Shown: piece after piece, positions 5,801 to 64,000 of the stretch
Numbering within the stretch: the first letter of the stretch is position 1
Layout of the letters: the number at the start of each line of letters is the position of its first letter
DNA from: Macrostomum lignano
Taxonomy: Eukaryota
Length of the DNA stretch: 64,000 nucleotides
Direction of reading: 5' to 3'
Assembly (NCBI GenBank): GCA_002269645.1
Contig: NIVC01003721.1
Span: forward strand, 62,001 to 126,000
Translations under genes and position numbers: made by a program
Notes under the pieces: generated by a model
Databases searched by the model: none
What the model saw: the letters and a program-made list of their open reading frames with translations, nothing else
What the model was told of the DNA's origin: nothing

Positions 5801-8800
5801 AGAGTCGCCGACGGCGCCGGCGGCGAATAGACATCGAAACAACCGAAGGCGCATCACGCAACCGAAACCCCTTCAGGTTTCAAAACTCAGGACACCACAA
5901 TCAGCCCGGAGGAGTCGATGAAGAAGTTCAGCGACTGGTACACCGCGGACGCCACCTACCGCTGTCTAGTGCGCCAGTACCACGTGCTCGAGGCCGAGCC
6001 GGGGCAGACTTCACTGGACAATCTGTGGTCGCAGTTCAACCCGGCCAGCTGGCCGAGAGGACGCCAGCCCGGCTCCTATCGGACGCTGGCCAGGTGGGCC
6101 GCCGGGTCGGACGCTGACGCGACGAGGCGCAACAGCTACGGCTACCTGCAGAACCAGCTGCACTTCCAGAAGGGCGACAACGGGCCAAGGGTTTGTGAAT
6201 AGTTTATAGAATTTTTTTATTTCGCTTCAAAATTCATTTATCAAACTGAAACTGGATGCCCAGTGTCCACCATCGCGCCATTGGTGTGTAAAGGTGCTGA
6301 TGTCTGCGTGATTTCAAAAATCCAACTCGAGGTCCATCCTAGAAAGTAGAAGGCATGAGGGGGCTTCTGGGACAAAATTTTTCACTTCCTCCATAATCCC
6401 ATTAAATCCATCTATATTATCCCTGACAGAATCAGAAAAAAAGGGGGGTCGCACTCGCTCACAAAACGTCCTCCATAATCCCATTAAATCCATCCATATT
6501 ATCCCGACAGAATCATGAAAAAGTGGAGGGGTCGCACTTGCTCCGAAAACTTCGAACATAATCGTATTAAATCCATCCATATTATCCCTGACAGAATCAG
6601 AGCAGGTGTCCACTGATACCTGTTATGTTCACTGACACTGACATAATCCACTGACATCCACCCATAACATTTCTAAAACAATCAGAAAATAATCTGCATT
6701 CTTCTCCACACATTCAATCCGCAACGTGCTACCACATCCCTAAGACTTTAAATCATCAGCGCAGGGTCCTCACCCTTTGAAAAAATTAAATTCTCAATAA
6801 AAATGTTTCCAGTTGTCTCTCCAGGTTCTTATTACAAAGCGCACGAGCCTAATTACAAGAGTAAGTACCGATGCAAACTAGAATGCAGCGAGTACATGAG
6901 AAAATATTGGCCCGATGTTGATATCAATGCCCCTAATATTAATCTAGCTCTTCAAAGACACTGGTTTCATAAGTACGGAGTAACCTACGTAAAAGATTAC
7001 GACAGCTACTATAACTTTGCAGAAATCATTAAGCAATTGTGATTTCTTACATTCTCTCAATGATCAACGTCAATACAAACTCTTCACCGTTGAAATCAAC
7101 ACCTACCCCATCTTCAGTCTCAAACTGTAGCACAATCTCGTGAATCTCCTTATTACTCAATACAACTCTTTTCACTGGATTTGGTTTCTCTACCACCATC
7201 TGTCCTCCAGCAACAGAGTTGGAGATGTTGTACAAAATATTCGTTCGCTTTCCCTTAAATACCCAATCAAGACTGAGATTGCTTCTGATTAGAATATTCA
7301 AACCCTTTACAATGTCTGCAATATTGGGTGCTAAGAACAAACCGCTTACATTTTCCCGGGCCATTTTAACGGTCCCCGATGCTTGAGTGGCGGTCCGCGC
7401 CGCGGATTCTGCCTTATAAACTTTCTTCTCGAATCCCAGTTCCCTATACCAAGTGTCATCTTTAAACTCAACCTCCGCATCTTTGTGAACTTGCATGACC
7501 ACTCTCATTACAGTGAGATCATAGGTTAGTTTGACAGGGAACAGTTTCTTCTCTGGCTTACTCGCATCAGGTGTCTCAAAATGGCCTCTTTTAGTAAAGA
7601 CATTTTCTAGAAAGTTATTGTAGGTATCCACACTTTGCGTGCTCACATGGAATACCACAGGGTCTGCTGCTGCGCCTTTCCATTTGTAATAAAACTTATT
7701 ATTTGCTGCCATCACATTGGGAACGTTTGACCAACCAGTGAAGTCGTTAAGATAGACATGGTAATTAGCACCTGGATCCAGGCGAATCGCCTGCTCTAAT
7801 TTTTCAACAAATATCCCGTTTGAGTCATTAATTCGCCCGGTTATTGTAATAGGAATGCTCTCCTTAGAGTGTGAAACAATGTTATTTAGTCTTTCGGCTA
7901 TAGCTTCCATTTTTTGTCCTAAAAAATATTTAAACTTTACTGGATGAATTGTTGATCATGTTAAGCTTCACCTTCCTCTCAAATGCATAGACAATGTACA
8001 GGTCCACGGGTGTTGCGGTAGTCCTCTCAATGTTAGTCACGATATTCACAGGGCTGTTATCAGTAGGCATTTGTCTGGCAGACACATCAGCGCCAAACAT
8101 CGGATATAGAGTTCCATATTGAAGAGCAGTGATAGCAATTCCATTGTTCTCTTTCACAGCCAAGTCGACCAACTCGCTGTAAAATTTGCTAATCTTGTTC
8201 TGACTGAAATCTCCATTTTGTGGCAGTGCAGGGTAAAGATTATCACTGATTTCATGCTGAATGGACCGCACGTCTCCATGCATGTAGCGTATAATGCTAT
8301 TTGGGTTTCTCATATTAATAATGATATACCTTGGATTGCTGCATGATCCCTCTTTAATGCAGATGTTTGTTCTAGTTTCGTTTCGCTCATCTCTACACAT
8401 GTAGGCTGTGTATGCAACATCAATGTCCTTCTCTATTGCCTTGAGATAATCCGCTTTTAGTGCAGTCTTTGGCTCAATGACTTCCAAATACAGCTCGATT
8501 CCGGTTAGCTTCACAGCCATCCCAGTGTGGTCCGCCCCAGTCCACAACACTCTACTGCGATCATCTCTAGTCAGTCTAAATGTGTAGCTAAAGTTACTAG
8601 TCAGTCGATTAAATGTATTACAGAATCCACTCATGAATCTCAATGGTACAAATACATCAACAGACCGATACAGCGGGTTCTTAGCAGCATCATCAGCACC
8701 TTGCAATGCATAGTTGTATCTCTTCTTCCTATTTTTATAACCACTGTCATTGATATCTCCTTCTTTTTCGTCTGCAATAAAACCCGCACCACTTCCCAAT

Positions 8801-11800
8801 TGAATAAAATCAGGATTCTCGATTAAACAATGAGCGTCATAGACAATTCCAAAGTTGGCGATTCGCTCCAACTCAGTGCTCCCATTCGATACACTAAACT
8901 CCTTGAACATATACGCCCAAAAGTTACTGATCAGAGCCACATCCGCATCATGCTTGTCAACGTTAGCACGAGCCGCATCCGCACCACCCTTTGTCTTGAA
9001 TTGAAATGTCATATGGAAGCCGCTCTTAAGACTGTGCACACTAACCAAAGACGAACATCCATTGTATGTAAATGTCAGTGTTTGACCAGGACCAAGATTA
9101 GTTTCATTCTGATTTTCCTGACTGGGAACTCCCACCCGAGTCGCTTTGATTGTGCTATTATCACTCAAAATAGGCTTGTTAATCTTGTAGAAAACTGGTG
9201 TCAGTGGGTCGTTCATTTTTTAACTAAAAATAAAATAAAATAAGAAATGAAGCGAAAAAGTACACAGCAGATATCTGAATTGGAGAAGCTAGCACAAGCA
9301 GAGAAACGAGTTACCGGGCTAATAAATAAGGAGCAACAATCCTACAATGAGTTTGTCCAAGCAGCCACAGAGTTTCATAAGCCCGGGTATGGAGAAGCTA
9401 AGAAAAATATTGATCAGGTCAAAGAAACTATCGACGACATACAGGAAACCCAGGTGCAAAAGGCCTTGGGCAAAATTCCAGAAGCACCACAGATACAGCC
9501 GCAACCACAGACACAACCGCAACCACAACAATCACAACCACAACAATCACAACCACAACAACAGCAACTAAAAGTGACCGATAACATTTTTGGACCAGTA
9601 GAGCGTGTAGAACATGATGGGAAATATGTATTTGGAATAAGTGTGTGGAGAAGAAACATTTATAATGACCCAGTGGAATATTATATCGACATAAATAAGA
9701 AACATATTTCTGTTGTTAAAGGCTCGGAAACTAAGAGCATTCCTTTCACAGAAACCTTACTGAATTTTATGACCAAGAACCAAGAGAGAATCTCGGACAA
9801 ACAGCTAAATAACTATAGAGATCTAGTGACTTTTGCTCTTGCTAGAGATATAGAAATACTAAAGGCCCCAGAAGTCCTGAGACTTATGTATGATAACGGT
9901 GTCAACCTGACTAGATTCAAAAAGTACAAACACTTTAAACAATGGTTCGGTTTGCCAGATCAGGCGGAAGTCATAAAATATCTAGAACAACCACAACAGC
10001 AACAGCAACCGCCACAACAGCAGCAACATTCCATAGAAGAACAAGTACTCAGTCAACTCGAGCAGTTAGACCCTTTGAAAGTGGCTGAATATAAGAAACA
10101 AAACCCGACAGACTGGCAACACTTAGAACAACACTCTCCAGATCGAATGAACAGAATCAAGCAGAGTTTTCACACCTCAACAAAGACAGGCACCACATGA
10201 CAGTTCCATCTCTGAAAGTGAGCAGTCTTTTGCATCACCTCCCCAGCAGCCACAAGCCCAACCAACTCCACAACCTCAAGACCAACCGCCCTCAACTGGA
10301 AAAGGAATTTCTGAAATCTACAAGCGAGTAGCGGTTCTTCTAGGAGCAGCAAAGACCGGAATGAAAGATGAAAATAGAAAAGAATTTGTCAACATCCTGG
10401 ACAAGATGCTTGAGAGAAAATATATCGATAAAAGAGCAAGAGAACTTTTGCTTTCACGGTTTAACAAAAAATAAATTTCTATTTAAAAAGATGCCAATTA
10501 TTTTCGAAAAAGACATTGACAAATACTATGACAAAGAGGAACTTAATCTCATTAAACGTGGATCTGGACTTTTCCCTGCAGGCCACTATCCAAGAAAAGA
10601 ACGCTCAGGGAACGGTCTTGCCGATTTGATCGCTCAGGGGGCCAAGATTTTTAAGGTCATTGGAGAGAACAAAGAGAACATCAAGAACGTTGCCGAAGCG
10701 GCTGGCAGTGTAGCCACAGCAGCCAAAAAGATAAAGGATACTGTAACACCTAAACAAGAGATTCAGCCTCCACTGGCCCCGCTGGCTCCATTGGCCCCAA
10801 ATCCAGACAGTGTGGACCCTGCAGTCTATGAGAAGATGAGGGCTAGCATTAAAAAAGGAAGTGGTTTCAAATTTGACTAAAGGGTACTTTCCGAGGGTAC
10901 AAGACTAGTCCCGAAATGACACATCTAAGTCCCAAAATGACACATCTAAGTCCCGAAATGACACATCTAAGTCCCGAAATGACACATCTAAGTCCCGAAA
11001 TGACACATCTAAATTATTTATTATTTAAATTTTTTTTTCATCATAGAAAAAATTGACTTTTCAAAAGACTTCAATCCTCACTGGACGCGTAATCAGATTA
11101 AGTTTTCTCATCACGAGTCAATTCCGAGTCACTTCAGATGCATTGTTGTTGGTTCATCAGGTTCAGGTAAAACATTCAGAGTCTTTAACATGCTTCTTAG
11201 ACCTGGCTTTATCGACTATGACACTCTGCACATCTACTCTCCCACACTGTATCAAGATGAGTATAAAATGTTGATTTCTGGATTGCAAAACAAACTGCAC
11301 AAAGAGGACATTATTGCATGTTTTAATAACCAAATGAGCCTTCCCAGTAACCCTGAAATTGTAGCTGCTGAATATGCAAAGCACCTCAAAGACAATGAAA
11401 AATGGCAGAACATTAAAGTGTTCACCTATGGAGATCCACAGGCTGATCCAAAGACCAAACTTCTACCCCAACCAGATGAGCTAGAAAAGGGGAGAAAGCA
11501 TTTGATCGTCTTTGATGATTGTATGACAGGCCCACAGAAGCAGATAGAAAACTATTTTACAAGAGGGCGACATAACAATTGCAATGTAATTTACATTGCA
11601 CAGAATTGGTTCGAGCTCCCGAACAAAACAATTCGTGGGAACTGCAATCTGATTCTCCTGTTTCCAACCATTCCACAGGACAGGCTAAAAAGATTTTACA
11701 ATGAGGTCATTGCGCCTGCCTATTTCATAAATCCAACAAAAAACTCAAGCAGAAAGATTTCACAAGAGGAATTCGTTAATCTTTGCTATGACAAGTGGAA

Positions 11801-14800
11801 TCAGCCTTACCAGTTTGTGATTATCAGCAAAGACAAAAGAACTGTAATTTAAAATTTGCTATTAAAAGATGTCGATAAACTTTGCAGGTGAGTCAACTAC
11901 AGGCAACAGCACTCTCACAACTTCCTTCCTTGATAAGCGCTACATTAACACTAATGAAGAGATCCCAGAGATCAAACTGAATAAAAACAGACTGAAACAA
12001 TTAGAGCGCTCCATGCACCAGTTGCAAATAAACATGGAAGATCTCAGGCTTAAAGTAGCTAGGCAGAAGTTTGAAAGTGATAAGCTTTATGTGCCGTTGT
12101 TAAACGCAACTAATGAACTAAGGTCAGAAATAACTTCGATAGTCTCGCTAATCAACGGCTTGAGATCATCAGTTAATCTTCTGGGAAATTCCACTGATAG
12201 ACGAATGCGTATTCTCGAAGGAGGAGTTTTCACAAACACAGCTAAAGTAAATAATTTAGAAGAGTTCATGAACCAGTCAACAGCGTTGCATGATAGAATT
12301 AAAGAAAACGTCGCAACCAACACAGTTAAAGTCAATAATTTAGAAGAGTTCATGACTCAGTCAACATCGTTGCATGATAGAATTAAAGAAAGACTTGATG
12401 CATTAGAGAGAAACGATGTATCACACAGTAGCTATCTAAACGGAATGTATAGCTCTTGGGGTAAAATAATAAGGAGGCTTGATCGTCTGGAGAGAACACT
12501 CAATCTTCGTGATATTGCTATTGATGAAGCAGAATCTGCTGCTCGTCCGGTCATGTCTACAGATCGAGTAGAAGGAGCTCTGGACCCCGACGGAGTAATC
12601 CGGCACGCTCTCAAACGTCAGCCGCCCAGCCGCTGCCTGCTGGACTCGCGATCCTCCAGCGTCAAGAGAGCCGCCTAGACAACCGGCGGTGCAGATGGAA
12701 TTATCAAAAAGAAAACAGATCTTTCAACCGGATAGTTTTATAATTTTTATTATTTTTTCTAGAGAAAAAAATGGCCCAACAAAATTCTCTATACGATCAG
12801 TCTCAATATGCTGAACCTAAAATACCGACAGCACCAAACTCAATGGCACCGAATTCGAACACACAAAACCTGGCACCGAATCTGAATGCATCGAATCTGA
12901 ATGCACCCAATATGAGCAACAAAAACTCTACCCGTCATTACTTGTAACTCTCAACAGTTTCGACTGGTGGAGATTCAAAAAATGCGCGATGATCTTGAAA
13001 AAAATATTTTCCACAACACAAAGAAAATTAAGCGCTATGACAACCACTGTAAATTTTTCGACTACAGCAATATATTCTAGGATCTGTGTCTGTTCTATCT
13101 GGATCTGCTGCAGCTGTCTCAGTGTTGCCAGCCATCACAGCCCCAATCGCAATTCCACTTGGTTCAGTAGGTGCTGCATGTGGACTTATTTCAGCAATTA
13201 CTGGAGCAGTAGCGCGAAACAGGCGAAAAAAACTAAAGCAGCTACAGGAGAAGCAAGTAAAAGAGAAAGGGTGCACACTTCAATCATAGGGTACATTTCA
13301 AGGGCAATCGAGGATAAGTTCATTTCAGAGGATGAGTTCAAAACCATTCAGGATCTTTATGAACAATCAATTCGAATGAACTTGAACATGGTCGGTACTG
13401 ATGACATGAGTCAGCTGAAAATGAACTCGAGAAAGTTTTCAACATTATGTGGAAAGAAAGTCGGCGAAAAATTCGGCAAGAAATTCGGCAAGAAGGACGA
13501 CGAGAATGCACAATGAACCCTATGAAACACAGCCAAGAATAATTTCCTTGTAGGTCTTTCGTGTTTTGGTCATTGCATACAAAACAGTCATGCACAGCTC
13601 ACCGCAAATATCACTGCTAAGACCTTGGAGAATAAAGTCTGAGCGATAAATTTTTTTATTTTTTTCCCCTTCATATAATTTCTTAGCTCTTCTGGTACTG
13701 CCGTCCCATAGCTATCGAAGTAATAACACTTGTGCTTGCGATCGGATCAATCACCCAGCAAACCCAATGAGATCCTGGCTTATCGGTGGTGTCAAAGTTC
13801 ATGATGCCGCATTCCTTTCTTAGAGGAAAATCGGGCAGAGTGTCCCTCATAAATATTCCTCTAAAGTTTGGGATTTCCAGTTCGTTAGCCAAATCTTCAA
13901 GAAAGTTATTTGTCGTCATTTTTTTATGAGGTTTATTAAACTTTCTCTTAAACCTAAACCCAATCTCCTAATCTCCTAATCTCCAGTGCCCGAATCTAAC
14001 TTCCACCTCCTAAGCCTAATCTCCAATGCCCGAACGGTAGACTGTTAATGTTGTCATCAAAAATGAATCTCTTGTTATCTGCACCTGACAGTCCAATCTT
14101 CTTTTGCTGAATTGTGTGAATAATATGGTTTTTAGATTGTAGCTTTGAGAACTCATGTGATGTCTTTTTGTTGCAATTCAAGGCGTCTCTGTATTCAGCT
14201 TCATTAATTTCCTTCCTAACTACACGTTTCGGAATTCCCTTTGATTTTTTGATTGGGTCTGACGACTCACATTTTATAAAATAGGACTTTGCTCTCAACC
14301 CAATGAATTCAGTGATTATGTCACCAGCAATCTCGTCCTTCATTTTCCCAATCACTTTCTTGTTAGTGGCGTCAAACACTTGATCGCCATTCTGTGTCCT
14401 GCAAGATTCATCATACTCAGACAAGTCAAACAAATCTTTTTGCTGCAGCATGTCCTGATAAATGTCTTGTTTGAATGTCCATAATAAAACTGTCTGTGTC
14501 GTGTACAAGAGTTTCATTTTATCCTTGTACTGCTGCTTCATGCCATAGAAGAACTGGTACATCAGACGTTTTGATTCGTCGAGAACAGTGACACCTGTAT
14601 AGATCGGCTTGCGCAGCGTCACCTTGGTTTTGTAAAATATGATCACACCTAAGTAGCTATTAAAGATATGGAGTTCTTTGAATGTTGGCTTTGACATATT
14701 TGCCTGAATAACAGCAGGCTCTGATGAGGTAACAAGTTTCAGGTTTGTTCTTTTCCGCTCATTCTCAAGAGTCTTGCCATAGACAGAGTTGTTGGCCAAC

Positions 14801-17800
14801 TTAAAGAGGTTCTTGTCAAAGTCGTTGGTTGCTTTGGTCCTAAACTGGGTGTTCTTATCAATGTAGGGTTTCATCCACGCTTCCTCTGTAAATGTAAGAG
14901 CCCGGTGAACTTTGGTGACCCTGCAACCAAGTGAGATAAAATACTGAAGCAGTTTGTAATGGATTTTGTAACGTGTCTTGTTGTTTAGATTCTGTGTTAG
15001 TTTCTCTGTATGTTCTTTTTCTGTTCCTGACAGGCCAAGTTCCATTATTATCATTGGGAGTTTCGATTATTTTCGGGCACTTGATGTTCTCTGGGAAGGG
15101 TGGAAAGTCAGAGAAATAGTCGTGAAGCTCTGGTGGAATGTAAACATCAACTTCATAAATGGCAGCCAATGAAAAGTCCCGTTTGAATTCTGATGAGGGT
15201 AACCATCGAAAATCTCTAACTGGAAGATCTTGACTCATCGCCCACCCGTAGAGATTATTAGCGTCCAAGTAAGTAATGTAGTTTGAGGGCTGCTCCTTAT
15301 TGTAAGATTCAATGTAGGGATTGTTTGCTTTTGCATATCTAGTGCAAATTGAGATCCCCCTCGCTTTGATGATTCGACAAAATTGTACATGTCAATGTCT
15401 GTAAGAAGTTCAATGTACCAATCTGGATCTTGATCCCATTTCATTTAAGCAAAGATTCCCAGCTAGTGGCAGGCAGAGACACATAATGTGCTGGATCGAG
15501 GCCATATGCTGTGTACCAGGTATATCTGAAGGTTTCAAACACATCGCGCCAGCAGAAACACATCTGTGAAGAGGTAAAGCAGGTGATACTGGAAGAAGTT
15601 TTGACAATTAAAGTAATTATAGACATGCTTCGCGTGCTCATAGTCTTTGTCAGAGATTCCAGAGTCTGTTAGCTTTGAAAAGAACTTCTCCTGTGGTGGT
15701 AAACCTTCTTCAAATACGTGATACCCAGTAATATTTTCATAGGGGTAGAAGCCTTTGTTCTCAGGAGTTTAAATGATTCATCACTGTTGTTAATTTTACT
15801 TGCAAACATCTTTGTATATGTACATTGTTCATCTTTTAGATTCTTGCTTAGTTCGTCTAGACTGGCAGCTAGAAATTGATATGAATCCTTCAGTCTTATT
15901 TTACCTTACCCGAATTATCCTGTTTAATATCAACACACTTAAACTTCTCCTTGTTCTCTGCGATGCAGTCAAGGTGTATGTCTGGAATCATGCCGATTTT
16001 TTCAACTATTAAATGCATGTCATAGTTCTTTGCGTTGTGACAAAATATCGTTAGATCATGAATGTTCGATTTTAGCTTTAGATTACAGGTGTTATGCGCT
16101 GCACCTCTAAATTTCCCAGTAAAGTGGCAGTGGTCCCTAACGGTGGGGTTTTTAATATCAGTGCAAGTTAAATGTTTCCTGCAGATGTGGCAATGAGTTG
16201 CTGATAGGAAATTGCTTTCATCCTCCTCAGTCATCATTATTGAACAGGTTGAAGGGTGCTAATCACTTTTTGCAACTCTAACATTCTGGCAATAAACTGC
16301 TCCACACACTGCTCTCCAAAGAAATAATTATACTCAACAAGTCCTTTTGTATTAATAAAGGCATATGCTACTGAATTGGGGACATTTTTGAGTTTGAGTT
16401 TGTTTTTGAGTTTCTGGCATGATTGAGCATTCGAAATCAGCATATACAACAAATGGGAGCTTCTCCATCTTGTGATAGTTCTTAAACCGGAGATACTTCT
16501 CTTCAGCTGAAGGAAGAGAGCAGTTTGTCGGGTGATCCTCGCATGATAATTCATGCTCTGTTAGTTTTCAAAGCGTTCAGGTCCACTGTAATGCTTAAGG
16601 CACAAGCGGCAGATGGCAACAGCCTCGTGATGATATTCAACTGCTTGTGAATGAGTCTTGAAAGATCTTTAATCCAAACATAGTGAGCCTCCTCTAGTAA
16701 ATTACCAATCACTAGAAGATCCACTTCATCCGCCTTTTCCCCTCAGGATCTAAAACGTCTTTGCTACATCTGACCGGTTGAACTTCTCAGTTTTTTCACT
16801 CCACTCAAAGACTGTGATTCTAATTTTGTTATTAAACACTTCTTCTAGCTTTGGGATCTGAGAGATCGCCAAGCCTCCTTTGTCAAACCTGATTCCCTTC
16901 TTTTCGCATTCGATGAGATAGTAGTTGAAATAATTTGATAATTTGAGGTTCTTTCGGGTGGTGAGGACACTAATAGTGCAGAAAGAACTGCCCATAGAGC
17001 ACAGCAATTGTCTTTATTTTTAACATTTATGCAGCTTTTTTGCCGGCTAGCTTATGCGGGGAGCTCTATATAAGAGGAGGCTTTAAGTGGGTCATATTTC
17101 ATGACCATGACGTCGCTCTTTGAATCCCTCCCACGACCCATCCGGAACCTCTGGATGTAAACGCTTCAATTTTCTTAGTGACATCTTGAAGGAAAGGATC
17201 CAGTGTGTCAGTAGGGGTGAATGGTTTTGCCTTTGTTGTCATGTAATACTCGAGATGCTCAGTGGGTTTGCAGGCATATAAAACGCAATCTTGAATGATA
17301 TCTGTAGTTTAAAGTCTTGCGTGTTTTGAGTGTGTGATCAACAACTGATTGGATGCTGTCTTTATAGTCGTAGATGTTTGCGGTGGTATCCTTAATTGGG
17401 ATTGTGTACTCTATGTAATGTTCTGTAAACTTCCTCTGTGCAAAATTAATCTCTTCAATGGCAAGCTCCGACTCTTTTAAATGGATTAATTGCTCTAATT
17501 TCTCTTGTTCCTGCTTATTTTGTGGGTACTTTGCTTTTTCACCAGTGAGAGTTTCGTATTTGTTAACTAAGTTGCGACTCCTCTCTTGGTGTTCCTTTGC
17601 AGAATTTTTTATAGGCGCATACTGGTTGGATTCTAATTGATTGATGATTTCCAACTGTTTTTCATAGCTTCCCAGGTGACCAGGGTCGGTGTTAAACTTT
17701 GTTGTATGCTTCTCTTAGTGAATTACTTTTGTCTTGAAATGACGCCTTTTGAAAAATATTTGTTGACTAAATCTTTGCTGGATTAGCTTTTGCATTTTTC

Positions 17801-20800
17801 TCTAAAATAAAAAAAAATTTTGAGGGTGACCACCCTGATAGAAAAGTTGAACTGTTTCTACATCCTATCAGTAGTATTAGGTTTATGAAGCTGATAAATG
17901 GGGTTTTAAACCTCATCACATGCGCATTATTGTAAACCCAGCATTGTGCAGTGTCATGATGGCTTTGACAATGTCAGACTTGCTTACAGAATTTTCAATG
18001 CTCAAAATCATCACGATCGGGCAGCCTCAGGGACCTCTCCTGCCTTAATTGTTATACCTTTGTCTCTTGCAATCTTTGCAATTCAAGCTGGTGGGCTCTA
18101 TCATTCCCAGCTTTAACAGCAGTTGCTACACCTCCAGCTACACCACCTGCGGCACTTACAGCGCCTGCAATGATTCGGAATAAGAGCTGCTAATGGTAGG
18201 ATTCCTCCTGACTTTTCATCTGTGATGCTGTGTCTTTGCTCATTACACTGAACTTTGCTGCACGGGATCGATTTTTACTTTGGCACCTTTAATTGATATA
18301 AGACTGGTTCTTTGATTCAATGATTTTATTGAGTTTATTGATGGTTCTGGTTTCAATCTTTGTCATTTTTATTTTAATATTTTAATTAATTTCTGTGTCA
18401 GCCGGTATCACTAGGAGTTCAGCTCTAGTGAATGACCGCGTGGGGATTTAGGGTTAAAGGCTGAGATAAAAAGTAATAGTCACCAGAGTCGGAGGTAAAA
18501 TGTCTGTCTATTTTATGTACATCAAGGCTGAAGTATGGATCTGTAGCTCTTCTTTTAGTGTTTTCTCTAGCTCTCCAGTAGATATAAAAAGCGTAGAAAC
18601 TCAGAGTTTGTCAGTATATATGGTGATTCAACTCCTGGAAGCTTAGGGTAGTTCGAGGTGTCTGTTCTATGAGATGCCTTAAGTTCGACAGTGTCTTGTT
18701 TAATTGCATGGGACGGTTTCAATCCAGTCATACGTGTGACTTCATTGTTCAGTTGCTCTATAACAGTGGGGAGCCGGTCTGTCCATTTTGAATAGTACTG
18801 ACCACTTTTTAGTTTCAGCTCCTCAGCTGTCTGCTAGTGAATAGCCTCTTGGCTAGAGTTAGATTGAATCTCTCAACGTACGCTTGGTCTCTGTGCAAGT
18901 TTGTTCTGCCATAGCGAATCTCTGTGTCATGCTTATGTAGAAGTGATTTCACTGCACCCATGAATTCTTTGCCAGGATCAGTCATAAAGGTTTCAGGGTA
19001 GCTAAGGGGTGAGTTTTTATAAATATCTTGGAGGGCGGCTGCAACTGCTTCTGACTTCTTCGTCTTGAGTGGGCGAGCTTCCTTATATCTGGAAGCAACG
19101 TCTGTAATTGTAAGAGCATACTTGTAGCCCGAGTCATTGGGGAGAAACAGAAGATCTGCTTGATGCGCCTCATTAGGTTTATAAATACTGAAATGGGGCC
19201 TTTCAAATTTTACTGGTGGGAAATAGACTTGAAAGACAGCCTGCTTAGAGAGCCATTTTTCTACTGTAGCTTTTGGTTCCTTACTCAGCTCCATGAGTTT
19301 ACTAACGGCATTTTTTGCCTACAAAGAATCCTTTGTCGCTGTAGTAGAGTTTTTTAAGTTTCTGATCTGTCATTTTTTTAAAAAGAAAATTTAAAATAAA
19401 ATAATGCAACGCTCTGGTGGTAAGTTAGATTCACATGGACTGATAGAAAAGCTTCCTCATCCAAACAAAGGCTGGACACTTCCCGGCTATAAATATTGCG
19501 GGCCTTTGAATCCACTTGAAATACAGTTAGATACAAACGATAATCCAAATCCTGGGCATGAGCCTGTGAACGAGCTAGACTCTGTCTGCATGTGGCACGA
19601 TGTTAAATATAGGGATTTTCCTGAGGAGAAGAATCGCTGGGACAAAGAAATGCTTAGAAGACTAGACAATATAGGGGCTTCAAGCGGATTTCGTGAGTCG
19701 ATCGCTCGGAAGCTAGTTAAAGCTGTTATTTTTAGTAAGGCAAAACTGGGGTTGGGGGTTGAAGGCGAGGGTGGGTGCTTGGGGAGAGAGGGCTGGTGCA
19801 CGAGGAGAGAGGGCGGAGGCTCAGGAGCGGGGTTTATTTTGTGCGCTCCTAACAAGAAATTGGGAAGACTGCTGAAAGAGCTGGGGGTAGAGAGAGACGC
19901 TTGAGTCGGGAAGGGCATGAGCAAGTGTGGATTTGAGTAAGTACAGTTTTTTATTCCCTAAAGAGTTGCGCACAAGAGAGATTCTCATTCTTCAGAGAGC
20001 TAAGAGCAGAAAATGAAAAAAAAGTCAACCGCTTCACCGCCATTGGCATGCATGGACTGCTTGGGATTCCTTGATTGATATTGATTATTGGCCAAATTGC
20101 GAGGCCAGTTGGCCCGCCGAGTTGGCCTCGGCCCGCCGATTTGGCCTCGGAATGTGGCCCGCTTTGTTGGTCTATACGGTATGAAGATATGGGGGGGGTA
20201 GAGAGGGGCGCTTGAGTCGGGAAGGGTTTAACTATTATTCTCAACCCTGGCCAAACGCGACAGCTGCATTTGAAATGTTGAGAAGCAGAAGGGGGGTGGG
20301 GTAACTGCTATTGCTGAGGGGGGGGGGCGTAGCCCTCTAATCGATTTTGCGAATGTACAAGTTCCACGTGTGCATTCCTTTCCGCTTTGACAACCGGAGG
20401 GAAGGAAGCGGGTGGAGGGAATTGATCGCTCGGAAGCTAGTTAAAGCAAGCAAGAAAATTCAGCTCATTTTGCTCGCACACGTTCTTCGTCGCGCAATAC
20501 TGCACCGTTGTGGCTGCTGATTTCATTATGTTGTAAGTTTATTCATTTTTTACTTACTGAAATTCTATACTGTGTTAAGAATTGAAAAATCTCTTATTTT
20601 GATTAAATCTTTGTTTTTAGTTCACAAAAAATTACGTTCTACTCGACCGACCTAGAAAATCTCCATGGTCGCCTTGTTGAAGGATTAGATGCCAACGAAC
20701 CGGCATCAGAGAGAATTCAAGAAGTTCTCCATCATTTCTTCAATGAAAAAGTTGAGAACCAGCGAATTTGTTCAAGAGCGGCCATGGAGACCCAGGATAA

Positions 20801-23800
20801 CAACTACGCCATGAGAACCGAAATGGTGTTTGACGAACTTCGCCGATCATTTGTTGCTGATGAAGATTCACTTCTTAGTTATCAACAAATTTTTTCCAGG
20901 ATTTTATCAATGTAAGCTACTGATAGTAGTCTTCTAAACACTTTCCTGGATCTCCAAGATTTTTTTCCAGGATTTTTTTTAAACTCGTGCCAATTCCTGA
21001 CAATACAGGAATTCCTGACAATACAGGAAAGTCTTTTACTGGATTTTTTCCAGGATTTTATCAATGTAAGCTACTCATAGTAGTCTTCTAAACGCTTTCC
21101 TGTATCTCCAAGATTTTTTTTAAACTCGTGCCAATTCCTGACAATACAGGAATTCCTGACAATACAGGAAAGTCTTTTACTGGATTTTTTTCCAGGATTT
21201 TATCAATGTAAGCTACTCATAGTAGTCTTCTAAACACTTTCCTGTATCTCCAGGAATTTTTTAAAACTCGTGTCAATTCCTGACAATACAGGAATTCCTG
21301 ACAATACAGGAAAGTCTTTTACTGGATTTTTTTCCAGGATTTTATCAATGTAAGCTACTCATAGTAGTCTTCTAAACACTTTCCTGTATCTCCAGGATTT
21401 TTTTTAAACTCGTGCCAATTCCTGACAATACAGGAATTCCTGACAATACAGGAAAGTGCTGTTCACAAAATGACTGGGAGGAAAATCAATATTATTCTGG
21501 ATCCGAAGAATATCGATTTTGGATTGTGTGAGGATCTACAATATCTTGTTCTTTCTCTACCTTATTCATTTCCAGCCTTGCAACTAAGCTTGCGCGTCGC
21601 GGACCAGCATTAGCTGGGGTAATTGGGGGTGTGTGGCGACTCCCCCAGTCCTTGGACTGAACAGCCGTACGCAGCCTTCAGATCTGCTCTTTCCTCCTTT
21701 CCTTTCCTTTGTTTTATGTAAATATACTTGTGAATAAATGAACTCAGTATGTTTTTTAGTAAGCTTTTGTGTTTGCTTTTCGATTTCTTCTGTTGCTGGA
21801 GGACAGATGGTGGTAGAGAAACCAAATCCAGTGAAAAGAGTTGTATTGAGTAATAAGGAGATTCACGAGATTGTGCTACAGTTTGAGACTGAAGATGGGA
21901 TGGGTGTTGATTTCAACGGTGAAGAGTTTGTATTGACGTTGATCATTGAGAGAATGTAAGAAATCACAATTGCTTAATGATTTCTGCAAAGTTATAGTAG
22001 CTGTCATAATCTTTTACATAGGTTACTCCATACTTATGAAACCAATGTCTTTGGAGAGCTAGATTAATATTAGGGGCATTGATATCAACATCGGGCCAAT
22101 ATTTTCTCATGTACTCGCTGCATTCTAGTTTGCATCGGTACTTACTCTTGTAATTAGGCTCGTGCGCTTTGTAATAAGAACCTGGAGAGACAACTGGAAA
22201 CATTTTTATTGAGAATTTAATTTTTTCAAAGGGTGAGGACTCTGCGCTGATGATTTAAAGTCTTAGGGATGTGGTAGCACGTTGCGGATTGAATGTGTGG
22301 AGAAGAATGCAGATTATTTTCTGATTGTTTTAGAAATGTTATGGGTGGATGTCAGTGGATTATGTCAGAGTCAGTGAACATAACAGGTATCAGTGGACAC
22401 CTGCTCTGATTCTGTCAGGGATAATATGGATGGATTTAATACGATTATGTTCGAAGTTTTCGGAGCAAGTGCGACCCCTCCACTTTTTCATGATTCTGTC
22501 GGGATAATATGGATGGATTTAATGGGATTATGGAGGACGTTTTGTGAGCGAGTGCGACCCCCCTTTTTTTCTGATTCTGTCAGGGATAATATAGATGGAT
22601 TTAATGGGATTATGGAGGAAGTGAAAAATTTTGTCCCAGAAGCCCCCTCATGCCTTCTACTCTAGAACTATATAACTTTTGATATTTCCCGGGCTAAAAC
22701 TACTAATAGTAACGTAAATTCATGTCTGAATTTTCGTCCTATCTTACGGGTTCCCATGTCGCAGAAATCCATCTCGACAACCTTGATCTCTTGAGTTCTC
22801 GACAATGCCTGTCGTATGTACTGTAGTGTCAGACAGTCTTACGCCCGAGCACTGTAACCTGATTGCAGCTTCACTACCAGTTTGCTCCCGTGCGAAACGC
22901 CAACGGCTTTGCGCTGAAAGAGGGCCACGGCTACATGGTAGACTGGGTCAACGTCCCGCCGCACGAGAGCTCGACTGACTTTTTCAAACGCCGACCGGAT
23001 CTCAGCAAGCACCTTGACCTAGTTAATGAGGAGAGAGAGTTGGCTACCGGTGAAGGTAGGCAGGCCCTGTACAATGGTGAGGGCGCGGTCCAGCTTATCA
23101 TTGTGTCCAAGGACGCCTGGTACAACAAAGGCATAAGCTCAACGCTGAGAAAAGTGGACACCGTCCATGATCTTATAAAAAACAACTGGAATTTGACGGA
23201 TGTAAGAACTCATTATTCTTATAGTCTCTATTTTATCCAATGCCTGGCATGATCCTGAACAAACTTTTACTCCAGTTCCTCTTGCTCAACTGGGGCAACC
23301 TGCAATACTGGCTTGGCGACCTGGGCTACCTGGCCAAGGGCGAGAAAGTGTTCATACAGAGCGGCCACCCCGACGTGCTGATTGGCGTCTGCCGGCATTT
23401 GCAAACTGGCAAGTTCTACGTGTGGAACGAGATGAAGACGGCCGAGCCAGAGAGTCTGCAGTCTGTGCAGTCTCGCTGGGTAAGCGCATGGGCCAAGGGT
23501 CGGCAAACTTTTTACCTCGATGTCCAGATAGAGAAACCAGCGCATGACTACGGGCCAGAGGGGGAAGAGGAGAGAGAAGAGAGATAGAAGAAGAGAGAAT
23601 AAATAAGAGGAGGTGAAGAAATCGAAGAGATGAGAGGAGTGAAGGGAGAGCAGAAGAGAGGACAGAAGAGAAGGAAAGCAGAGAGGAGATGGATGATTAG
23701 AGAGTAGGGAGCTGAGAAGAGGCACAAACCCTAAGCGGGCCGGATTTCTATTCTGAAGTTTCAAAGGACCTCTCTTGGATAGAGAGGCTTTGTGGGCCGC

Positions 23801-25317: not shown

Positions 25318-25802
25318 TGGAGTCCAGGAGCAAGCAGTTTTATCCTTAGTGAGAGAGAAGCAATCTATTAAAAAGAGAAGAAGGTAATAGCATGACCTTT
25401 TTGCCCGACAGGCCAATAACCAATACCCTTTAACGCCATAGACTATCAACACCCGCTAATGTCGAATTTGTGGGCAAATGTTCTTTTGAACATAGACAGT
25501 TTGTTGTTTCTGTTTCTTGCGCTCTACGCCGCCCGACTCTGCCCCCTCACACCCCACCCTTGCTATGAAATCGTAGCCTGAGCAAATATGTCTATGGTAG
25601 CTCGTATATTAGCTTGATTCTCTCACTTAGGATTGAACTGCTTGCTAATCAGTTGGCTTGTAAAAAATACAACAGTGTTCTGTAAACGGATTTCGCAGCA
25701 AAGATTAGCCTTCTGCGCAGCGTTAAACCCGAGGTTTTACCATAGACAAAACTCATGCACTTGTTTCATCCGCAAACTCAGAAGCTGAAAATGTGAGACT
25801 AT

Positions 25803-25995
25803 GGGCCGTATGCAGAAAGCTTAGTCCAGACTAGCTAGTCCGGACTTGGGTAGTTCAGTCTATGGTCTATGGTCTAGCTACCCTAGTTCTGCTATAGTAG
25901 ACCGATCTAACTTTGCGTTTCTGCATACCAAATCCAAGTCCAGACTAGCTTTTCAAGACCGGACTACCCTAGACAGAGCTTTCTGCATACGGCCC
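25803..25995 (+). mobile_element. 193-bp MITE (PIF/Harbinger-like), copy 1
   Basis: TIR GGGCCGTATGCAGAAAGCT / AGCTTTCTGCATACGGCCC; 3-bp TSD TAT. Confidence 0.8.
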
Positions 25996-26021
25996 TATGC
26001 ATTAGCAAGATAGCACATATT

Positions 26022-26215
26022 GGGCCGTATGCAGAAAGCTCTGTCTAGGGTAGTCCGGTCTTGAAAAGCTAGTCTGGACTTGGATTTGGTATGCAGAAAC
26101 GCAAAGTTAGATCGGTCTACTATAGACAGAACTAGGGTAGGTAGACCATAGACTATAGACTGAACTACCCAAGTCCGGACTAGCTAGTCTGGACTAAGCT
26201 TTCTGCATACGGCCC
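26022..26215 (-). mobile_element. 194-bp MITE, copy 2, inverted relative to copy 1
   Basis: Near-identical reverse complement of 25803-25995; flanks ATT/ATA. Confidence 0.8.
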
Positions 26216-26468
26216 ATAGACTTTTATCATAGTTTCTAGCAGTATTTTAACCAATGATTCAAGTTTCCTTAGATCTGAAACAAATCCAATTTCAATTATT
26301 TTTATTACGTCTAATCCATATTTACTAGCTAGATAATAACTATTAGATGCTACACTGCTGTGCAAGGATTGACACCTATATTTAAATTATTCTGTCTGAT
26401 ATTTGCAAACATTTTTCTTTCAAGTATTTTCTGTTTTGGGTAAACAACAAGCGGATTCAGGAATTATT

Positions 26469-28746: not shown

Positions 28747-63756
<35,010 letters not shown>

Positions 63757-64000
63757 CTTTGATGGTGAGAGACAGAAATTGGAGAAAATCATCTTTGGAG
63801 TTTCGTTATTTACGAGCAAAGAACAAAAATGATTCTGCATCGCTTTAGAGTTGAGTTTTTTAAACAAGGGCAATAAAAATCAACAGATAGCAAACTATTT
63901 GTAGCCTTTAAAAGTTCAAAACAGAAATGATAAAATAACACAAAACAGTCCAATTTTCTGTGTGCGAGCGATGGCAGATAGTCAGGCAGACGGACAGACT

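Follow-up and report, generated by a model that had tools for sequence, protein, structure and literature searches.

The stretch of Macrostomum lignano DNA analysed here, hereafter the window (64,000 nucleotides; positions 62,001 to 126,000 of the forward strand of contig NIVC01003721.1, GenBank assembly GCA_002269645.1), contains at 6345-22661 an integrated Polinton/adintovirus of a high-copy family, and each of its two terminal inverted repeats (TIRs) carries an open reading frame for the same 79-residue protein (ORF79). Considering all of the results, the best explanation, to which as a whole we assign a probability of roughly 0.55, is that ORF79 is a constrained terminal accessory gene, likely descended from that half of an RNase T2 which holds CAS II and likely encoding a non-catalytic RNA binder, and that the silent differences of its two copies represent two sibling haplotypes that existed beforehand, likely left in place where the left end ceased to be copied onto the right.

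Both termini of the element read AGTAG, and a 6-bp target duplication, CTAGAA, flanks them. Alleles of the empty insertion site, with one CTAGAA each, are present in two other contigs, and the flanks are 99% identical, suggesting that the insertion is recent. The two arms, 6345-7217 and 22661-21789, form the window's longest inverted repeat; each is 873 bp long, and they align without gaps, with nine substitutions. The features of the two ends are as follows.

6339..6344, unstranded: left target-site duplication CTAGAA, single copy in the empty-site alleles C959 and C198
6345..7217, plus strand: left inverted arm, 873 bp, beginning AGTAG, with three repeat units of about 83 bp (about 6384-6601), ORF79 and the putative minor-capsid tail
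6803..7042, plus strand: left copy of ORF79, 79 residues, isoelectric point (pI) 8.8, no hydrophobic stretch, reading inward from the terminus
6878..6994, plus strand: RNase-T2-like core, about residues 26-64 (helix, YWP and a CAS II-like HWFHKYG, which is HWFEKHG in sibling variants); sibling variants match Pfam PF00445 (positions 66-101) and PDB sequences, and the window variant has no Pfam match
6952..7000, plus strand: five silent arm differences, standing haplotypes TCCCC (left) and CTTTT (right)
7104..7106, minus strand: two arm differences, Val versus Met, in the capsid-gene tail
21789..22661, minus strand: right inverted arm, containing a 171-bp duplicate of the capsid-gene tail
21964..22203, minus strand: right copy of ORF79
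22662..22667, unstranded: right target-site duplication CTAGAA

The two copies of ORF79 are translated into identical proteins. The arm alignment confirmed the description in a preceding sequence-only reading of five silent third-position differences within the frame (6952 CTT/CTC, 6961 CAC/CAT, 6976, 6988 and 7000 TAC/TAT) and two differences in non-coding parts of the arm (6637 and 6765). That reading overlooked that the repeat reaches 175 bp beyond ORF79 and there holds 7104 and 7106, which together replace Val by Met in the putative minor-capsid tail. Free of selection, the chance that five of five changes are silent is 0.0002 over all single changes, 0.004 over transitions only, and 0.009 for three CpG and two other transitions.

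Read together, the five sites define the haplotypes TCCCC on the left arm and CTTTT on the right, which recur in 10 and 14, respectively, of 111 distinct copies (window arms included, some allelic duplicates kept); the commonest patterns are CCTCC (33/111) and CCTTC (25/111). Over 6946-7217, the left arm is 1-2 changes from the left-end copies L140, L132, and L133, and the right arm 2-3 changes from L172, L195, L199, L067, and L068. Furthermore, L067 and L071 carry the inner neighbour sequence of the right arm and the same boundary at 7217. The proposal that the differences derive from a diverged sibling therefore held, because the inner part of each arm is nearest to different sibling copies, whereas the 49-bp patch described earlier turned out to be the inner edge of a mosaic arm, each side of which runs on into its own sibling haplotype. 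On both arms, the part upstream of 6952 has alleles of the TCCCC group, which points to left-to-right copying; the right allele at 6765, found in one of the 111 copies, is a private change. These sibling matches indicate that the inner parts each stand in their native context and that the outer ~607 bp of the right arm match the left parent. The inner boundary at 7217/7218 also recurs in C1076, C875, and L123, and a contig of run X18 departs from the element at 7218 into other sequence starting with telomere-like repeats.

Among 61 common sites, mean r2 dropped from 0.56 for pairs 1-10 bp apart to 0.06 for those 31-60 bp apart and to 0.01 where the distance exceeded 120 bp (permutation p 0.0005), and this decay within about 30 bp shows intense recombination among siblings. 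The occurrence of both haplotypes elsewhere and the short linkage indicate that the differences are recombined standing variants, neither read errors nor local decay. Residues 12-17, 48-52, and 56-64 of ORF79 vary as multi-residue cassettes (KAHEPN, KTHEPN, TQPNPL, and TQPHPL; two or three C-terminal blocks) in many combinations. Such cassette-wise variation is as in a surface under diversifying pressure.

Consensus errors in raw reads, named by the sequence-only reading as what would overturn its inference, are countered by the recurrence of both haplotypes among the 111 copies and by the right arm, which was found identical in a second contig, the whole right 2 kb being the same in two contigs. 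Contigs of all four public runs contain the alternative alleles at 6952, 6976, and 6988; 6961 and 7000 are not among the sites listed. An assembly artefact, in which reads of sibling elements were merged into one arm, seems improbable. At least one chimera of this insertion occurs in the assembly (C2715, which joins the right end and flank of the window to the left end of another element), and public DNA contigs are too short to phase the flank with ORF79. However, only 607-655 bp separate the differing sites from unique flank, two contigs are identical over the right 2 kb, and seven long-repeat elements are without such differences; majority polishing would not produce TCCCC and CTTTT, because neither is the commonest haplotype. 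To the right of about 20,000, C2715 (L005, L181, L245, and L246) is near-identical to the window; it has many indels further in, as well as the left end and flank of the other element. It is likely an assembly chimera, suggesting that the polymerase and integrase of the window may also owe some of their broken frames to assembly errors.

We propose the following scenario for the arm differences. Recombination very probably yielded a genome whose left end was of the TCCCC type and whose right end was of the CTTTT type. Before integration, the outer ~607 bp of the right end would then have been overwritten from the left end, a step that we consider fairly likely and that a displaced-strand panhandle would permit in protein-primed replication. 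In adenovirus, non-matching terminal repeats are repaired through a panhandle, so that one end templates the other in a protein-primed linear replicon. Literature searches covering conversion of Polinton TIRs and end repair in adenovirus found no direct paper, and none in which such copying is demonstrated for Polintons.

Less probably, the arms matched at integration and an ectopic gene-conversion tract from a sibling genomic copy later overwrote the inner part of one end. Such a tract would also leave the outer part identical, because it must end inside the arm, so that the same inner-edge pattern is predicted; sibling templates number in the hundreds (522-637 first-look candidates), and the six of 30 arm pairs without a matching target duplication fit ectopic exchange or misassembly. 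However, this explanation alone accounts neither for repeats of 1100 to more than 1600 bp whose extension has placed capsid sequence at both ends, with 0-6 substitutions, nor for the very short linkage among shared alleles and the constraint retained, and the insertion, as judged from its empty alleles and near-identical flanks, looks recent.

The arms of the sibling elements bear on the proposed end-to-end copying. Forty-two arm pairs were tried, 12 of which were dropped because a terminus lay outside the sampled stretch; matching target duplications were found in 24 of the 30 evaluable pairs. In these 24 verified elements, the repeat measures from 261 to more than 1600 bp, and ORF79 is present at both ends in 16 and at one end only in eight. 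Within ORF79, the 16 two-ended elements comprise six with no difference between the ends, two with one private change, six with shared-allele differences only from base 113 on, and two that differ throughout; none differs only within the first 112 bases. The clean-upstream pattern was seen in 94 of 6039 random pairs of copies. Sixty-six of the 77 differences over the 16 pairs are alleles present in at least three copies, and none of the seven elements with repeats longer than 1100 bp, some of which duplicate capsid sequence, has a shared-allele difference in the frame. The premise that TIRs should be identical at integration thus looks untrue here, since 10 of the 16 differ in ORF79. Nor are silent differences the general pattern, the 77 being divided into 33 silent and 44 replacement changes (10 and 11 without the window and two wholly diverged pairs); because the differences in other elements are mixed, the 5:0 split of the window is a favourable draw.

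Inward copying from the terminus over a variable distance is the simplest single mechanism for this pattern, because the arms often differ, the repeat varies in length, the gene is one-ended in eight elements, and the differences lie at the inner edge. Several observations weigh against it. From outside to in, the arm quarters have 14, 11, 3, and 28 substitutions, which is no clean gradient (this count omits two pairs with more than 40 substitutions; the between-element background is 43, 69, 89, and 88 per kb). Two of the 16, C1151 and C570, have matching target duplications and yet differ over most of the arm, several pairs differ near the terminus, and C276 and C1652 are probably one insertion counted twice.

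Some siblings have other unannotated frames in the terminal slot (L094, L106, and L125, 225 residues; L135-L137, 212-240 residues; L091, 207 residues; and L008, L010, L099, and L119, 92-142 residues), either replacing ORF79 or beside it, suggesting that the ends are a variable cargo region. L065, L066, L075, L114, and L232 share the same ends and ORF79, whereas the tail of their capsid gene is only 71-76% identical, which amounts to a swapped capsid module.

Judged from its variation among copies, ORF79 is a dispensable, moderately constrained accessory gene. Of 30 loci selected by their terminus, 23 contained it, as did 22 of 30 selected by their capsid gene (window arms included; three frameshifted), and 605 first-look candidates gave at least 150 matches at 88% identity or more; eight of the 150 best protein matches have an internal stop. 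The ratio of replacement to silent diversity (piN/piS; pairwise, bootstrap intervals) was 0.39 (0.24-0.62) in 69 unique intact copies and 0.42 (0.25-0.67) in 30 copies chosen without regard to ORF similarity, and 0.49 and 0.53, respectively, with transitions weighted threefold; seven of 84 copies were omitted as broken or without a start. Four other frames used as controls gave 1.1-2.2, and the in-register antisense frame gave 0.44-0.59, as expected, with stops. Alleles present in at least five copies comprise 25 silent and 30 replacement changes, compared with an expectation of about 1 to 3.6, and singletons seven and 22. The view that ORF79 is a real gene under purifying selection is thus borne out, and a dN/dS of about 1 across copies is excluded by the intervals.

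That the frame is non-functional and the silent excess reflects CpG decay is very unlikely. Three of the five sites are CpG, constraint on ORF79 is weaker than on the capsid gene (piN/piS of the capsid-tail control, 0.17-0.22), and residues 12-27 are near neutral (0.68-0.93). However, this explanation is largely refuted by the piN/piS intervals below 1 and by the silent-to-replacement split of common versus singleton alleles, and length changes among intact copies are in frame.

ORF79 lies outside the RNase T2 family by the CAS I motif and by score; its sequence nonetheless suggests that it probably arose by descent from an RNase T2, of which it would represent the CAS II half. In a language-model atlas, RNase T2 clusters ranked top for both the window variant (0.90) and the sibling variant L110 (0.83). 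In two sets of aligned variants, PF00445 was matched by four of 17 (best E 0.0047, 17.5 bits) and by 13 of 26 (best E 0.0026) at profile positions 66-101 of 188. All three PDB sequence matches of L110 are T2 enzymes, human RNASET2 (E 0.0079) and two ACTIBIND entries, and the A2 profile returned the same three at E 0.2-0.3; L110 also resembles the host T2 (shuffle p 0.002). The aligned stretch runs from MRKYWP through the CAS II-like HWFEKHG, and Tyr35, Trp36, Pro37, His53, Trp54, Lys57, and Gly59 are invariant in all 103 unique copies. Describing ORF79 as an orphan was thus probably too strong, given these weak matches of sibling variants, though the description stands in that no homologue was found outside the genome. 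A word search of 5.8 billion proteins found none at near length and gave 1857 candidates at longer lengths, none with E of 10 or less, and no homologue was found in viral and metagenome contigs.

The descent from RNase T2 has to be weighed against a series of contrary points. The atlas recognition values (1354 and 1677) are under the tool's mark of 2300, and the T2 scores of 14-20 bits are under the Pfam cut-off of 26. The window's own variant has no T2 match in Pfam or PDB and gave a shuffle p of 0.08 with the host T2, and profile comparison with the host T2 gave a probability of 1.4%. The matching variants were chosen after the lead was seen, and the signals are not independent, because all rest on one similarity of ~35 residues. 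MRKYWP is also matched by a chance tandem-repeat protein, and invariance is not confined to the motifs, extending to 34 columns in 69 copies.

Several other leads were discarded. Three matches from a search of 1.84 billion representatives are all tandem-repeat proteins and summed-score artefacts, and PDB matches of the window variant to glycosyl hydrolase 31 (E 0.7-1) are chance. For a split T2 with CAS I elsewhere in the element, a scan of 195 sequences gave 10 motif-like matches, one of them a host exon, and none convincing. Predicted models (pLDDT 61 and 56) have three main helices bracketing the conserved motifs. With both models, Foldseek found nothing in PDB or viral structures, and the best hit of a wide aligner had Z 4.0 with T2 not listed, which speaks neither way on a T2 fold; PHROGs were uninformative for ORF79.

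With respect to function, we tentatively suggest that ORF79 is without RNase activity, stays inside the cell, binds RNA via the retained His53/Lys57 helix, and blunts RNA-based silencing by the host. This suggestion takes its basis from the basic pI of 8.8, the aromatic-rich composition, the apparent lack of secretion, the retained helix, and the inward reading of the gene. ORF79 may thereby be an early protein without catalytic function that counters such silencing by binding RNA or as a decoy. For the T2 homologues of pestiviruses, polydnaviruses, and a planarian nidovirus, a role in modulating host responses has been proposed, for some of them without catalysis (sections of PMC6211748 and PMC3400635). 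At its widest, the idea, which is again only tentative, is that a miniaturised host RNase T2 became a dead RNA- or RNase-decoy early protein, kept in hundreds of copies as shuffled motif cassettes, and that the Polinton repeats are the footprint of variable-length inward copying that doubles or drops terminal cargo.

The main competitor as to function, somewhat less probable still, is a small zinc-binding protein using Cys24, Cys28, and His53 with His56 or His58, either unrelated to T2 or with its metal site on a T2-derived scaffold; the two functions may coexist. Cys24 (101/103) and Cys28 (102/103) are one helical turn apart, His53 is invariant, and a second His is found at 56 (80 copies) or 58 (18 copies), never at both. 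However, five of the 103 copies have neither, no zinc-finger profile matches, and the predicted models are weak for geometry. The H-x2-H arrangement highlighted earlier is accordingly not conserved, and the swap between His56 and His58 is one event and not repeated covariation, because it lies within a single linked block.

An active ribonuclease, alone, as an oligomer or complemented by the host, is improbable. The HWFEKHG variant, seen in 3 of 30 unbiased copies and in 18 of 103 after targeted sampling, retains the CAS II residues His, Lys, and His, and active-looking T2 enzymes are described in other viruses in parts of PMC6211748. However, T2 enzymes require catalytic histidines, and Rny1 is inactive once these are lost, as stated in sections of PMC3400635; CAS I with its catalytic His is absent from ORF79 and from convincing element-borne frames in the 195 sequences; the CAS II Glu position is Trp in all 103 copies (register read ungapped from the L110-PDB alignment); and the second His is replaced by Tyr at position 58 in 85. 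No signal peptide was found in ORF79, its highest 11-residue hydropathy being 0.48.

The remaining genes of the element are as follows.

7047..7910, minus strand: putative minor capsid protein, convergent with ORF79 with 4 bp between the stops; named from adjacency to the major capsid gene, without a profile match
7930..9216, minus strand: major capsid protein (double jelly roll); PF21738, E 7e-5, under the curated cut-off, context as expected
11013..11852, plus strand: A32-like packaging ATPase; PF04665, E 3.3e-6, over the cut-off
13683..13967, minus strand: fragment that we take to be protease-like from its motif; no informative profile match
13996..17714, minus strand: region of what is presumably a DNA polymerase of family B that uses protein priming, from motifs visible in its fragments; several frames in this assembly, with an endonuclease-VII-like stretch (PF02945, E 7.7e-5)
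18815..19318, minus strand: rve integrase piece; PF00665, E 1.4e-10
19404..19904, plus strand: PLA2-like (PLA2X) gene; PF08398, E 1.8e-13

The polymerase region had no polymerase match in Pfam, PHROG or PDB. Inverted repeats ending in AG/AGT with a 6-bp duplication, a retrovirus-like integrase, an A32 ATPase, and a double-jelly-roll capsid define the element as a Polinton/adintovirus, and its PLA2X gene is that of the alpha-type adintovirus virion module. The convergent stops of ORF79 and the putative minor-capsid gene are 4 bp apart in the window (7040-7049), so that the 3' ends of the two genes would overlap, compared with a spacer of ~350 bp in other copies. A tandem repeat of 142 bp (about four units, 20890-21469) occupies the right part of the element.

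In the host DNA of the window, a near-perfect hairpin with arms of ~200 bp and a 20-nt loop lies at 25796-26222, and exon-like minus-strand frames at 29869-30672, 35613-36425, 50360-50593, and 63481-63840, spread among minisatellites, presumably belong to an RNA-binding (RRM-type) gene. A host RNase T2 exon of this genome is 100% identical to a protein labelled Macrostomum lignano at its source. Elsewhere in the genome, a host RNase T2 gene contains a sibling element with the target duplication AAGCCA, inserted into the minisatellite intron that separates the exon for CAS I from the following one (G000:C2606, L232:2907 to L233:2479; also C3540 and C4945; empty allele C195, L234). This location is probably a coincidence, because the insertion is polymorphic and, by sequence, the exons of the host gene are distant from ORF79.

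Direct observations of Polinton replication are scarce, and the arms of hundreds of recent copies record where end-to-end identity stops, so that this family makes the panhandle copying model testable from sequence alone. The results also warn that arm divergence should not be read as insertion age. The T2-derived mini-protein, if its origin is correct, would add a truncated, probably non-catalytic member to the few viral captures of RNase T2 and provide a handle on how such elements deal with the RNA defences of their host.

Polintons, their cargo regions and mosaicism, and the viral capture of RNase T2 are already known. Tupanvirus is also said to carry a T2 homologue. The element shares with Polintons/Mavericks and alpha-type adintoviruses, as described in parts of PMC8097293 and PMC8502044, its size of ~16 kb, AGT-type termini, 6-bp duplication, rve integrase, A32 ATPase, double-jelly-roll capsid, and PLA2X; it differs in having repeats of 261 to more than 1600 bp within one family, arms often of different haplotypes, and a T2-like mini-gene in the terminal slot. 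In the same parts of these reports, the TIRs of vertebrate Mavericks are given as 46-1447 bp, and the term 'RNase' is absent from the main text of the adintovirus paper (PMC8502044). Pestivirus Erns, the polydnavirus T2 and the T2 of the planarian nidovirus PSCNV are likewise host-derived T2 proteins in viruses, thought to modulate immunity or toxicity, and the PSCNV domain is presumed cytoplasmic, as proposed here for ORF79 (sections of PMC6211748). According to the same sections, PSCNV T2 keeps CAS I and CAS II, whereas ORF79, with 78-80 residues, has neither CAS I nor a signal peptide and is situated at the end of a Polinton. The cargo genes of nematode Mavericks (WASP proteases and KRMA kinases; parts of bioRxiv 10.1101/2022.07.12.499685) and the mosaicism of Polisuviricotina (parts of bioRxiv 10.64898/2026.10.13.758929) resemble this family in a variable subterminal cargo region, in host-derived genes, and in recombination between elements, also below the gene level. 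Both reports describe swaps of modules or domains between diverged elements, whereas in the present case it is alleles of a single family that are shuffled, linkage extends less than about 30 bp, and the repeat has taken in duplicated cargo. Our search, which mostly left out subscription journals and did not extend to supplementary gene tables, found no report linking RNase T2 to a Polinton, adintovirus or Maverick gene, or describing such end dynamics. Adenovirus panhandle repair is alike in that identity starts at the terminus, whereas the tracts in the present family would run from hundreds of bases to more than 1.6 kb and capture genes.

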